Positions 61,383-64,000 of a stretch of 64,000 nucleotides of DNA are shown one piece after another. The notes below the pieces were generated by a model. The model had not been told where the DNA came from, ran no database searches, and saw nothing but the letters and a program-made list of their open reading frames with translations. Within the stretch, counting starts at the first letter, position 1. Every line of letters starts with the position of its first letter. The DNA comes from Polyangiales bacterium (GTDB lineage Bacteria; Myxococcota_A; Polyangia; Polyangiales; Polyangiaceae), in the NCBI GenBank assembly GCA_038231275.1, contig JBBRLQ010000003.1, positions 448,001 through 512,000 of the forward strand, given 5' to 3'. The position numbers were made by a program, and so were the translations under genes.

Positions 61383-61757
61383 ATGACGTCGCCCGCGAAT
61401 CTCGACGAGATCTTCGGCGCCCTCGCAGACCCCACGCGTCGCGCGATCGTGGCGCGGCTCGCCGGCGGGGAGGCCACGGTTCTCGAGCTCGCCGCGCCGT
61501 TCGACATCAGCCTCCCGGCGATCTCGCGGCACCTCAAGGTGCTCGAGAACGCGGGGCTCATCTCGCGCGGACGCGACGCGCAGAGACGGCCGTGCCGGCT
61601 CGAGGCGGACGCGCTCGACGAGATCAACCGATGGACGCAGCACACGAAGCGCGCGTGGGAGCAGCGCTTCGACGAGCTCGACGAGTACTTGAAGAAGCAA
61701 CAGCCGACCCCACCCAAGAAAGAAGAGAAGAAGAGCCATGGTCGCAAAAAGCCCTGA
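61383..61757 (+). CDS. ArsR/SmtB family regulator
   Basis: FGALADPTRRAI, ISRHLKVLE.AGLI. Confidence 0.96.
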   Translation: MTSPANLDEIFGALADPTRRAIVARLAGGEATVLELAAPFDISLPAISRHLKVLENAGLISRGRDAQRRPCRLEADALDEINRWTQHTKRAWEQRFDELDEYLKKQQPTPPKKEEKKSHGRKKP

Positions 61758-62244
61758 CACGACGTGGTCGCTGGATCGCGAGATCGTCCTGTCGCGCGTG
61801 TTCGAGGCGCCGCGTGCGCTCGTCTACGACGCGTGGACGCAGCCCGAGCACCTCACGAAGTGGTTCTGTCCGAAGGGCTTCACGACGACGACGCGCGAGA
61901 TCGACGCACGCGTCGGCGGGAAGTGGCGCTTCGACATGGTCGCCAACGATGGCAACATGATGAAGGTGCCAACCGGCACGATCTTCGGCAATCGCATCGT
62001 GTTCCTCGAGATGCGCGCGCCCGAGCTGCTCGTGTTCGATCACGGCCAGGACAAGGACGACGACGAGACGCGCTTCCGCGTGACCGTCACGTTCGACGAG
62101 CAGGCCGACAAGAAGACGGTCGTGACGATGCGTCAGCTCCACCCCACCAAGGAGCAGCGCGCAGCCGGCATCGGCTTCGGCGCGGTCGAGATCGGCTACA
62201 CGACGATCGACAGCCTCGCCGACTACCTGCGCAAGATCCGCTGA
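61738..62244 (+). CDS. SRPBCC/AHSA1 domain protein
   Basis: REIVLSRVFEAPRALVY.AWT.PEHL..W..P.GF, D.RVGG.WRF. Confidence 0.94.
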   Translation: MVAKSPDTTWSLDREIVLSRVFEAPRALVYDAWTQPEHLTKWFCPKGFTTTTREIDARVGGKWRFDMVANDGNMMKVPTGTIFGNRIVFLEMRAPELLVFDHGQDKDDDETRFRVTVTFDEQADKKTVVTMRQLHPTKEQRAAGIGFGAVEIGYTTIDSLADYLRKIR

Positions 62245-62252
62245 GCGCGCGC

Positions 62253-62702
62253 TCACTCCCCGAAGCTCGACGCTCCGGCGGCCCCCGCGACAAAGGAAGC
62301 TTCGTTCGATTCGAGGTCCCATGGCTCCGACCCGTCGGGCGGCTGCTGGTACGACGTGAAGCGGACGATGTAGCGACGCCGTTCGGGAGGGAACGCGTAG
62401 AAGCGGTCGAGCTGGATCGACGTCTCGATCGACTCGCCCGGCCCGAGGCGCACGAAACCCTCCGGACCGGGAGGCCCTCGCTTCACGAGCGGCCCGGTGT
62501 AACCGACCCTGGGCCCGCCCGCCGGCGTGATCGCGAAGAGGTCGTTCTCGAGCGCGCCGTCGAGGGCCGCTTGCGAGCGGTCGACGAAGATCGGGGCTGC
62601 CGAACGGTTCACGATCGAAATCGTCGCGCGAACGCCGGCGTCGGTCGCGATCGACAGCGTCGCGCACGCGCTGGGGGCCATGGCACGGGGTGCGTCCGTC
62701 AT
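62253..62702 (-). CDS. Stand-alone protein resembling the M35 protease pro-domain
   Basis: LENDLFAI...G..V.YTG.LVKR..P...FV.L.PGES...IQL...Y.F; ATG 62702 overlaps the protease TGA. Confidence 0.75.
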   Translation of the reverse strand: MTDAPRAMAPSACATLSIATDAGVRATISIVNRSAAPIFVDRSQAALDGALENDLFAITPAGGPRVGYTGPLVKRGPPGPEGFVRLGPGESIETSIQLDRFYAFPPERRRYIVRFTSYQQPPDGSEPWDLESNEASFVAGAAGASSFGE

Positions 62703-63430
62703 TTGGCGTTCTCGATGTAGTACTCGAAGTTGTCGGCGTTGGTGATGGCGTCCTCGGGCCTCGTCTTGGCGAGCCGCAAGGCGTTCTCGATGCCGTACCC
62801 CTTGTCGCCCGTCGCGCCTATGTCGTTGAAGTGGGACATCTCGTGGGCCAAGGTTCCGGCCTTCGAGTCCTTTCCGATCGACGCGGCCTTCTTGAACATG
62901 TCGCCCAGGAAGATCGTGTGGCGCTGGTCGCCCGGGTGGACGTACGCGAACAAGTTCGAGTCGGGGTTGGTCGAGTCTCGGAAGTGGCTGAACGTCGGAT
63001 CGTCGGTCAGCTCCTTGTTGAGCGCCAGCTCGTGCTCGACGCGGGCCTGGATGATCGCGCGGCGCGGCTCGGTCGGCGGTCCGAAGAAGCGCGCGAAGTT
63101 GGCCTTCGCGAGGACGTCCCAGCGCGCGAGCTCCGCTTTCTTCTCGAGCAAGAGGGCCCGCTCGTCGCCCAGCGCCTGCTTGAGCGCGGCGTGGTGCGCG
63201 GCCACCCACGGGGAAGGCGGCGTCGGCAGCTCGATGTCTCCTGTCTTGAAGGCGGGGCCGAGCCCCCGGCTCGCAGCCCCCAAGAGCGCGCCGATCGCGC
63301 CGATCGAGCTGCGAAAGAGATCGACGGATGGCGCGGCGCGGGGACCCCGCAGCACGCCGGGGCCGATGTGCACCCCGCGGTTGCCGACGTGGACGAAGGC
63401 GGCCGCGTTCTTCAGGGCGGCGACGCTCAC
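62699..63430 (-). CDS. M35 (aspzincin / Lys-specific) metallo-endopeptidase without signal peptide or pro-domain
   Basis: FAYVHP, GTLAHEMSHF, GATGDKGYG, NADNFEY; GTG start after AGGTGA. Confidence 0.9.
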   Translation of the reverse strand: MSVAALKNAAAFVHVGNRGVHIGPGVLRGPRAAPSVDLFRSSIGAIGALLGAASRGLGPAFKTGDIELPTPPSPWVAAHHAALKQALGDERALLLEKKAELARWDVLAKANFARFFGPPTEPRRAIIQARVEHELALNKELTDDPTFSHFRDSTNPDSNLFAYVHPGDQRHTIFLGDMFKKAASIGKDSKAGTLAHEMSHFNDIGATGDKGYGIENALRLAKTRPEDAITNADNFEYYIENAK

Positions 63431-63434
63431 CCCG

Positions 63435-64000
63435 TCACCTTCGCGCCCTTTGCCCCGGCATCGGGACGTACGACGCGGGGAGGGGCGGCGGCAGCGTGCG
63501 CGAGAGGTCAACGTCCGGCGGGGGCTCGGAGATTTGTCGCGGCACGGGGCGAGGGACGATCCCGCTCGGCGCGGCGCTCGCCCGCGCGGAGTCGAGGAGG
63601 CGCGAGAACGCAGGGTACATTTCGGTGTAGCGATCCTTGGAACAGGTGGCCGTCACGTTGAGGATCACCGGCCCGTCTTGCTCGTCGATCTCGATGAACG
63701 TGCACGTCTGCACGATCATCCCGTCGTCGCCGGACCGCTCGATCGCGATCTCCACTCGAGACATCCCCTGCGCGTCCGAGGCGCAATGGCTGAGGACGCG
63801 GAGCCCGCGGCGGTCGCGCAGATCCGCGATCTGTTGGAGCGCGAGCGAGTGCACGGTGTCTCCCGGGCGGCGCGGCTCGCTCACGAGGACGACGCTCGCA
63901 GGCGTGCCACCGCCCGGGGCGGGCGGCTCGCTGAGGGTCACGATGGTCCGGCTGGTCCAGTCGGGCGGCGGCTCGAAGTCGGCGGCGCGCAGCGCGCGCG
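63435..64000 (-). CDS. DcrB/DUF1795-like protein, 5' end outside window
   Basis: FEPPPDWTSRTIV, SVVLVSEP, final strand-helix (ILNVTAT...AFSRLLDS) of the Mog1p/PsbP-like fold. Confidence 0.65.
   Translation of the reverse strand, partial: RALRAADFEPPPDWTSRTIVTLSEPPAPGGGTPASVVLVSEPRRPGDTVHSLALQQIADLRDRRGLRVLSHCASDAQGMSRVEIAIERSGDDGMIVQTCTFIEIDEQDGPVILNVTATCSKDRYTEMYPAFSRLLDSARASAAPSGIVPRPVPRQISEPPPDVDLSRTLPPPLPASYVPMPGQRARR

Follow-up and report, generated by a model that had tools for sequence, protein, structure and literature searches.

The last 1.75 kilobases (kb) of a 64,000-nucleotide stretch of DNA from a Polyangiales bacterium (assembly GCA_038231275.1, contig JBBRLQ010000003.1, called contig C3 here, positions 448,001 to 512,000; the whole stretch is referred to as the window) carry three closely spaced genes on the minus strand, A, B and C (Table 1). 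We read them as what is probably an orphan effector cassette of the type VI secretion system, in which B is a cargo effector with a metallopeptidase toxin domain of the M35 (aspzincin) family, C is its cognate immunity protein and A is an Eag-type chaperone. A first-pass annotation made from the sequence alone had already proposed a chaperone, effector and immunity cassette with a free-standing relative of the M35 propeptide, and this proposal is now supported by homology, fold, gene pairing, carriers of related toxins and a predicted complex. The sequence features on which it was built, namely the protease motifs, the gene positions, the overlap between B and C and the lack of a signal peptide or pro-region in B, could all be confirmed.

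The strongest evidence comes from gene C, which shows no match in Pfam or NCBIfam. Using C alone as query (phmmer) it aligns to the pro-region of AsaP1 (2x3a, residues 29–126, E 8e-4), with LVKR of C paired with LIKR of AsaP1, and a profile of 66 free-standing relatives of C matches AsaP1 residues 31–149 with E 1.9e-17, no other PDB chain falling below E 0.5. The AlphaFold2 (AF2) model of C is a beta-sandwich with a predicted local distance difference test (pLDDT) value of 91, and its four best Foldseek matches are all chains of the AsaP1 zymogen (E 2e-7 to 2e-6, the best with E 2.1e-7 and a template modelling (TM) score of 0.69). In VIA-align the model superposes on AsaP1 residues 23–174 (Z 15.4, root-mean-square deviation 2.8, 127 residues), followed by the intracellular proteinase inhibitor of Bacillus subtilis (3isy, Z 10.2; Foldseek E 5e-3) and by generic sandwiches with Z 8.5 or lower; the nearest named Atlas cluster is BsuPI (0.88). 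The structure searches thus put AsaP1 on top, as expected from the propeptide pattern recognised earlier in C, and C is genuinely homologous to the M35 prodomain. As it is encoded by a separate gene downstream of B, C is not itself a propeptide, and it has no signal peptide.

A profile built from C and its paralogue on contig C25 of the same genome retrieved 709 cluster representatives at E<=1e-3, including 151 at E<=1e-10, from 1.84 billion proteins. Among the best 150 of the 709 representatives the lengths are mostly 130–190 amino acids (aa), some members beginning with the domain itself and others with a signal-like or lipoprotein-like leader. When 28 members of the family were scanned with Pfam, six turned out to be ordinary zymogens with the domain N-terminal to Aspzincin_M35 (E 1e-17 to 4e-11), one carries the domain on both sides of the catalytic domain and four carry it after fibronectin-type domains. 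The larger proteins P0054, P0128, P0134 and P0139 have a C-like domain at the C-terminus following fibronectin type III domains with no M35 domain detected, so the C-like fold is not confined to the neighbourhood of M35 enzymes. Word-indexed homologue searches with C alone or with the 66-sequence profile returned only the cluster of C itself and a few unnamed proteins. In a cluster look-up of ten family members three of the 12 listed members are named, one as 'hypothetical protein' and two as 'peptidyl-Lys metalloendopeptidase'; as one of the latter is a free-standing protein of 181 aa (the other being zymogen P0055), annotation pipelines see the similarity as well.

Gene B supplies the matching catalytic domain. 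Residues 109–240 correspond to Aspzincin_M35 (PF14521; E 1.2e-24, 87.8 bits with a cut-off of 30, and 89.1 bits in the search of the whole genome) and include the motifs HEMSH (196–200), GATGDKGYG (205–213) and NADNFEYY (231–238), and the protein has neither a signal-like start nor a pro-region. HEMSH is invariant in 20 of 20 aligned relatives, as are T207, D209, Y212 and G213, and the GTxDxxYG segment aligns to the same motif in AsaP1 and in GfMEP, the peptidyl-Lys metalloendopeptidase of Grifola. Asp209 corresponds to the third zinc ligand of aspzincins. Searched with a profile built on 20 toxin-domain relatives, the PDB yields AsaP1 (1e-37), GfMEP (1g12, 3e-36) and the deuterolysin-type enzyme 1eb6 (6e-10), and the eight PDB sequences that match it at E<=1 include none named VgrG. 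By alignment, E157 and D154 of GfMEP correspond to E236 and D233 of B, the former being at least 90% conserved and the latter invariant among the aligned relatives. A mutation of E157 alters the P1' specificity of GfMEP, as stated in a review (PMC11985622), and in light of this alignment a preference of B for Lys is plausible. Judged by its sequence, B is an active-looking, probably Lys-directed M35 zinc endopeptidase. Its toxin domain is 47% identical to the C-terminus of a VgrG-M35 fusion on contig C25 and 50% identical to the PAAR-M35 protein P0158.

In order to follow the pairing of B and C into other genomes we retrieved 35 loci, from contigs representing one genome per species, with an alignment of the B toxin domain and scanned them with the C profile. 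In 22 of the 35 loci a C-like domain begins on the same strand 9–232 nucleotides (nt) behind the M35 match, and in two more it begins at 403 and 488 nt; in one of these two the M35 gene is apparently broken, and in the other the match is weak. In four loci, which are canonical zymogens, the domain precedes the enzyme, and seven show no C-like domain. Loci with the pairing were found in Acidobacteriota, Myxococcota, Pseudomonadota, Bacteroidota, Planctomycetota and Thermodesulfobacteriota. This survey of gene-pair conservation, which the first-pass annotation had proposed, bears out its argument that the reversed order excludes a simple frameshift, since toxin followed by inhibitor is the conserved order. 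Its description of a split M35 protease is misleading, as nothing has been split in this genome: the pairing of B and C is an old and widespread toxin-immunity module and not a local gene split.

The toxins that have a C-like gene behind them are borne by type VI carriers of several kinds. PAAR-M35 relatives are present, with PF05488 recorded for six of the 25 hits of the toxin-domain search and PAAR-like N-termini occurring in addition; VgrG-M35 fusions were identified with Pfam at loci L035, L038, L041 and L043, and short M35 cargo genes stand behind VgrG, DUF4123, PAAR or TssA genes at L039, L040, L051, L056, L060 and L067. Other relatives, from Bacteroidota and Planctomycetota, form the end of large (1732–1779 aa) or Rhs-core-like proteins (L044, L046, L047, L055, L058), so that the toxin domain is not bound to one carrier. 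Most of the downstream C-like copies bear signal-like or lipoprotein-like leaders; leaderless are C of the window, its paralogue on contig C25, the copies at L036, L056 and L060, four copies at L062 and the first of two at L038.

Two of these loci deserve a separate description. At L038:3956-5469, from a metagenome-assembled genome of Geobacter sp., two C-like genes come after a VgrG-M35 gene, the first without and the second with a signal-like N-terminus, which looks like the guarding of both compartments from one toxin. The locus L062:2375-5886 of Niastella populi is an array of toxin-immunity modules, in which at least two M35 toxin genes are interspersed among four signal-less C-like genes over a length of about 3.5 kb. 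Among the loci of secreted M35 zymogens, mostly from Gammaproteobacteria, a second C-like domain is common, which follows the catalytic domain in frame (L077, L078) or is encoded by a neighbouring gene (L076, L081, L088, L053, L054). Because these zymogen loci carry a second C-like domain behind the enzyme, the order of enzyme and then inhibitor also occurs in secreted enzymes.

The genome itself contains a second copy of the pair in a type VI context. On contig C25 an 898-aa VgrG (Phage_GPD, Phage_base_V, Gp5_trimer_C) ends in Aspzincin_M35 and is directly followed by the paralogue of C, 34% identical to it; then comes a VgrG with a Peptidase_M91 end, and TssC and Hcp are encoded about 20 kb further on. 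This region (C25:59127-67000, corresponding to L006:11128-19000) contains a row of three evolved VgrG genes, the third starting at about C25:65.5 kb. Nine VgrG, three PAAR and eight DUF1795 matches above the respective cut-offs were counted in the genome.

Prediction of the B–C complex gave a score of 0.92 (median of three runs) and of 0.00 for the best of three controls. Of 80 solved complexes 58 came up to the mark for this score, as did two of 110 mismatched pairs; this calibration is made rough by the use of our own alignments and a riding zinc, and the score may echo the solved AsaP1 zymogen. Contacts agree to 100% between the runs, with a pLDDT of at least 89 for the partner. The predicted interface is formed by residues 52–54 and 67–79 and a few others of C, with residues 67–79 making up its bulk, and on the side of B by the edge strand 159–167 together with H196, E197, H200, D209 and D233. 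Within the loop L72 is predicted to contact E197, H200, D209 and A232, and K74 to contact residues 161–163, T193, H196 and E197; a lysine occupies the column of K74 in 20 of the 23 sequences of immunity type and in 16 of the 18 of prodomain type. The model, suggested beforehand by the first-pass annotation, thus places the loop of C over the zinc site of B. As a similar arrangement has been solved in cis in AsaP1, it should be taken as a likeness rather than as proof.

From these data we suggest the following mode of action. B and C would be made together, and C would shield the cytoplasm of the producer by laying its Y-x-G-x-x-x-K-R loop along the cleft of B and across the zinc ligands, in the manner of the prodomain acting in cis. 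A would presumably hold the N-terminal region of B up to the mounting of B on a VgrG spike of this genome, and in a recipient cell without C the peptidase would be free to act, the C-terminal 170 residues of B causing harm as a zinc endopeptidase. The toxicity of B, its Lys specificity, its delivery and its contact with A are what we infer here, and for the inhibition of B by C it is the predicted complex that speaks.

A quick maximum-likelihood tree was made of 56 C-like domains, and a tree of 51 catalytic domains was set beside it. L084 (an unpublished genome) and L089 (the same region as L079) were left out of both trees, and L085 (identical to L051) was also left out of the catalytic one. 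The tree of C-like domains is divided by a split with a Shimodaira–Hasegawa-like approximate likelihood-ratio test (SH-aLRT) value of 98 into one side of 24 rows, all from zymogen loci (15 prodomains, two C-terminal copies and seven other copies), and another side of 32 rows, which holds all 23 immunity-type copies, six further copies and three prodomains. These three prodomains are biased towards the immunity side, as they had been chosen among the top hits to the C profile. In the catalytic tree the same three zymogens group with the toxins and the other 17 zymogens stand together (split support only 88), and judged from these sequences a co-divergence of inhibitor and catalytic domain would fit. 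Since both trees are unrooted they agree equally with a propeptide that was set free and with a free inhibitor that was fused; of the earlier claim that the propeptide has become a free inhibitor, the free-standing propeptide relative is therefore retained and the direction of change is not.

Gene A had been described as a DcrB/DUF1795-like gene ahead of the protease gene, and this is backed by its paralogues and its predicted fold. A is absent from the eight PF08786 (DcrB) matches that the genome gives at E<=0.1; it is related to two paralogues in the genome with 32% (E 1.9e-15) and 28% (E 9e-8) identity, both located at places that pass the PF08786 cut-off. The best Foldseek matches of its AF2 model are EagT6 (6xrf, in complex with Tse6; E 5.8e-8, target TM 0.65–0.68), 1tu1 (PA0094), DcrB (6e8a) and SciW (6xrb). 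Because of the paralogues above the cut-off and the fold, A can be regarded as a relative of the DUF1795/Eag proteins, and according to its model it has an Eag-type fold. Two of the DUF1795 paralogues stand directly ahead of effectors in which a membrane region and a PAAR domain occur together. A carries a Pro-rich C-terminal extension ending in ...VPMPGQRARR, and such an extension of about 40–60 aa with an invariant PMPG-x-R end is found in all seven aligned Eag/DUF1795-like proteins of the genome, mostly followed by RR and the stop codon (the copy of A lies at 63435–63580 of the window). As the codons differ between the copies, the PMPG tail is conserved at the protein level.

The part of B that A would have to serve is less clear. 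The first-pass annotation had noted an N-terminal extension with a hydrophobic helix and had seen in it a possible loading tag; the extension is there, but its hydrophobic stretch is weak, with a Kyte–Doolittle maximum over 19 residues of 1.23 (residues 43–61), whereas the membrane helix in one of the genome's prePAAR effectors reaches 2.74. Residues 1–74 gave no match in Pfam or NCBIfam, and a scan of metagenome contigs with B found two distant loci and no relative of these 74 residues. MAFFT placed residues 4–25 under the last PAAR repeat of the fused relatives; a PAAR remnant in B is nevertheless unsupported, as B outside the toxin domain shows no significant match to the PAAR-M35 protein (BLASTP E 15).

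Several observations weigh against the cassette that we propose. The 187-aa piece of A in the window reaches 15.6 bits (E 0.018) with the Pfam DcrB family, whose cut-off is 27.2, and the AF2 model of A is of moderate confidence (mean pLDDT 70, core 80–90). An Eag-like gene upstream of the M35 gene was found in none of the 35 loci, and downstream of the immunity gene in two. B has no PAAR domain, as judged by Pfam and by the comparison with the PAAR-M35 protein, no canonical prePAAR motif (AARxxDxxxH) in residues 1–30 and no true membrane helix, and these are the features served by known Eag chaperones. In profile searches TssC, Hcp, VgrG and PAAR were all found on other contigs and none on the 549-kb contig of the cassette, which also lacks any of the DUF1795 matches above the cut-off; next to the cassette there are regulators, a kinase and an ArsR/SRPBCC pair, leaving the Eag-like gene A as the sole candidate link to type VI secretion beside B itself. 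The module is also uncommon among the kin of this bacterium: it turned up in eight of 401 genomes from a sample of the phylum and, when C was the sole query, in two of 201 from a sample of the order. To the possible echo of the AsaP1 zymogen in the complex score it has to be added that a 'lysine plug', with K74 sitting in the S1' pocket, is an idea rather than a finding, as K74 is conserved but the model names no contact with the putative S1' residue E236. In AsaP1 a lysine of the propeptide is reported to occupy the S1' pocket.

With these features missing from B, no type VI genes nearby and Eag followed by M35 in none of the other loci, one could also think of a stranded cassette, B being the remnant of a prePAAR-type effector that gave up its membrane and PAAR parts, or had them replaced, through recombination and can no longer be mounted, and C serving mainly as orphan immunity against kin M35 toxins. 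B begins with VSV like the PAAR effector on contig C28, and its residues 20–62 bear a faint, non-significant resemblance to the last part of the membrane region in that effector (E 0.14, with 37% identity across 46 residues). We regard stranding as a serious rival, though an unlikely one: the three frames are intact, tightly coupled and written in native codons (GC content at third codon positions (GC3) 0.86–0.93), all catalytic residues of B are kept, and short PAAR-less M35 cargo effectors do occur behind VgrG or adaptor genes elsewhere. C is moreover only 34% identical to its C25 paralogue, which makes cross-protection doubtful.

An intracellular protease held by its own cytoplasmic inhibitor for regulated proteolysis in the producer, with A as an unrelated DcrB-like protein, is in our opinion very improbable, because the nearest relatives of the toxin domain are overwhelmingly found on or next to carriers of the PAAR, VgrG or Rhs-like kind, this very genome has the domain on a VgrG, and A is closest in fold to effector chaperones and has paralogues in front of PAAR effectors. 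What speaks for it are the missing signal peptides of both B and C, the regulators and the kinase next to the cassette, and the B. subtilis proteinase inhibitor and the BsuPI cluster as second-best fold match and nearest named cluster of C. Equally little probability is given by us to a toxin-immunity pair that is delivered by a route other than type VI secretion, such as Rhs/YD-repeat or other polymorphic-toxin carriers or outer-membrane exchange. It would agree with the relatives that end very large and Rhs-core-like proteins, but B has only 243 aa and neither a carrier domain nor a signal peptide, the genome has a type VI system, and gene A has the Eag-type fold predicted by its model, which to our knowledge is known only from type VI systems. 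The type VI cassette of chaperone, effector and immunity protein therefore remains the reading that we prefer.

Table 1. Location of the cassette genes, of selected segments of B and C, and of the paralogues of A. Positions refer to the window unless a contig is named.
Feature	Position	Strand	Description
Gene A	63435..64000, continuing 25 nt beyond the window end to ATG at C3:512025	-	196 aa, Eag/DUF1795-type putative effector chaperone
Gene B	62699..63430	-	GTG start, 243 aa, probable cargo-type effector with C-terminal M35 (aspzincin) metallopeptidase toxin domain
Gene C	62253..62702	-	149 aa, signal-less probable immunity protein homologous to M35 zymogen prodomain
B residues 1–74	63209..63430	-	N-terminal region, Gly/Ala-rich, weakly hydrophobic stretch at residues 43–61
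B residues 75–243	62702..63208	-	Toxin domain common to VgrG-, PAAR- and Rhs-like-borne relatives
HEMSH (H196, E197, H200)	62831..62845	-	Two zinc ligands and catalytic base
ATGDKGYG, B residues 206–213	62792..62815	-	Aspzincin GTxDxxYG motif
C residues 67–79 (GYTGPLVKRGPPG), including K74-R75	62466..62504	-	Conserved loop, predicted in the active-site cleft of B
Six A paralogues with PMPG tail	C25:53035-53589, C28:80337-80927, C13:129117-129707, C14:125899-126432, C48:39835-40377, C6:92233-92775

The three genes follow each other without room for much else. The GTG start of B lies 4 nt after the stop of A, and the ATG of C overlaps the stop of B (ATGA overlap at 62702). Their GC3 values are 0.89 for A, 0.93 for B and 0.86 for C, and the GC content of the cassette is 0.698 compared to 0.692 for the genome; as both measures match those of the genome, a recent horizontal acquisition of the cassette is unsupported. 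A promoter scan around the cassette returned no promoter-like site and one terminator-like site, the latter at chance level. In the DNA beyond position 64000 a vgrG or PAAR gene was to be looked for according to the first-pass annotation, but neither is present, and past A we found a divergent sigma-70-like gene and then a Ser/Thr kinase of 932 aa instead. On the other side the cassette is met before C by a convergent pair (61383–62244), named from sequence only, of an SRPBCC/AHSA1-like gene and an ArsR-family gene, the latter overlapping the start of the former, with 9 nt between the stop codons of this pair and of gene C.

Protease effectors belong to the less understood type VI weapons, and in the accessible text of PMC6899460, PMC10673891 and bioRxiv 10.64898/2026.09.28.754971 we found no structural account of the immunity mechanism for M35-type pairs. 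As a wider and only tentative proposal, the immunity proteins of M35 toxins carried by VgrG, PAAR or Rhs-like proteins across phyla might all be zymogen prodomains acting in trans, with the Y-x-G-x-x-x-K-R loop as pseudo-substrate, co-divergence of inhibitor and catalytic domain and a leader that marks the target compartment as periplasm, cytoplasm or both, and with a PMPG-tailed Eag protein loading the PAAR-less and helix-less B by an as yet undescribed route. The cap in cis and the immunity protein in trans would then be one and the same device. If this were true, the solved AsaP1 zymogen would be a template for the whole family of 709 representatives and would predict the loop and the residues that decide on cognate specificity, and the family would be a clear case of a toxin-immunity pair related to an ordinary secreted zymogen. 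The presence or absence of a signal on the immunity protein could then be a cheap predictor, read from sequence alone, of the compartment that is attacked, and a PMPG-tailed Eag-like gene in front of a client without the known features of Eag clients could point to a second loading route.

Compared to the known members of the M35 family, B shares the family and the HExxH, GTxDxxYG and NADxxE segments with the AsaP1 zymogen of Aeromonas salmonicida (2x3a, 2x3b, 2x3c), GfMEP (1g12) and 1eb6, and C shares the fold, a detectable homology and the Y-x-G-x-x-x-K-R motif with the AsaP1 pro-region. The arrangement is different, as in the secreted zymogens the inhibitor is N-terminal in the same chain, whereas here it is a separate gene after the catalytic domain and neither B nor C has a signal peptide. 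Since there is no cleavage site to release C, the enzyme would remain inhibited for good in the producer, and in the target it would not be inhibited at all. In the Eag systems EagT6–Tse6 and SciW–Rhs1 (6xrf, 6xrb, 6xrr), whose chaperone chains are the best matches of the A model, Eag genes directly precede their clients as A does its presumed one. The paralogues of A precede effectors that combine a membrane region with PAAR, in contrast to B, which has no PAAR, prePAAR or true helix, and while the solved Eag chains are 140–150 residues long, A and its paralogues add the PMPG-tailed extension.

Free inhibitors homologous to propeptides are known for other proteases, such as Spi of Streptococcus pyogenes, which acts on SpeB, and the subtilisin-propeptide-like inhibitors; they are encoded beside the protease and act in trans. 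These inhibitors protect the producer from its own secreted enzyme. The pair of B and C follows the same idea of a prodomain fold used in trans, but its logic is that of a toxin-immunity pair used between bacteria, and in our literature search no prodomain-type trans inhibitor was found for the M35 metallopeptidase family.

Closest in function are the M35-type effector-immunity pairs already described for type VI secretion, namely VgrG2b–PA0261 of P. aeruginosa (PMC6899460), M35(PAR) and its immunity gene in E. coli PAR (PMC10673891) and T6EC12–T6IC12 of Methylocaldum szegediense, whose PF14521 effector is toxic in both cytoplasm and periplasm and whose T6IC12 is predicted to cover the cleft of T6EC12 (bioRxiv 10.64898/2026.09.28.754971). 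According to these three papers a metallopeptidase toxin is neutralised through complex formation by the product of the next gene, as proposed here for B and C, and delivery uses a VgrG fusion, DUF2345-mediated loading or Hcp, different from the Eag gene found here. PA0261 is periplasmic, in contrast to C, which lacks a signal peptide, and it is by description only that PA0261, AKO63_2956 and T6IC12 are set beside C. When E. coli genomes were searched at the DNA level for a link to the E. coli PAR pair, the queries being the enterobacterial loci L056 and L051, no match came up. The words 'propeptide', 'pro-peptide' and 'prodomain' are absent from the main texts of PMC6899460 and PMC10673891, as is 'propeptide' from the main text of the preprint, and a literature search aimed at this point found no text linking M35 type VI immunity to a prodomain origin. 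Taken as a whole, the class of M35 type VI effectors is already known, the prodomain ancestry of its immunity family appears to be undescribed, and the pairing of such a module with an Eag-type chaperone appears to be unusual.

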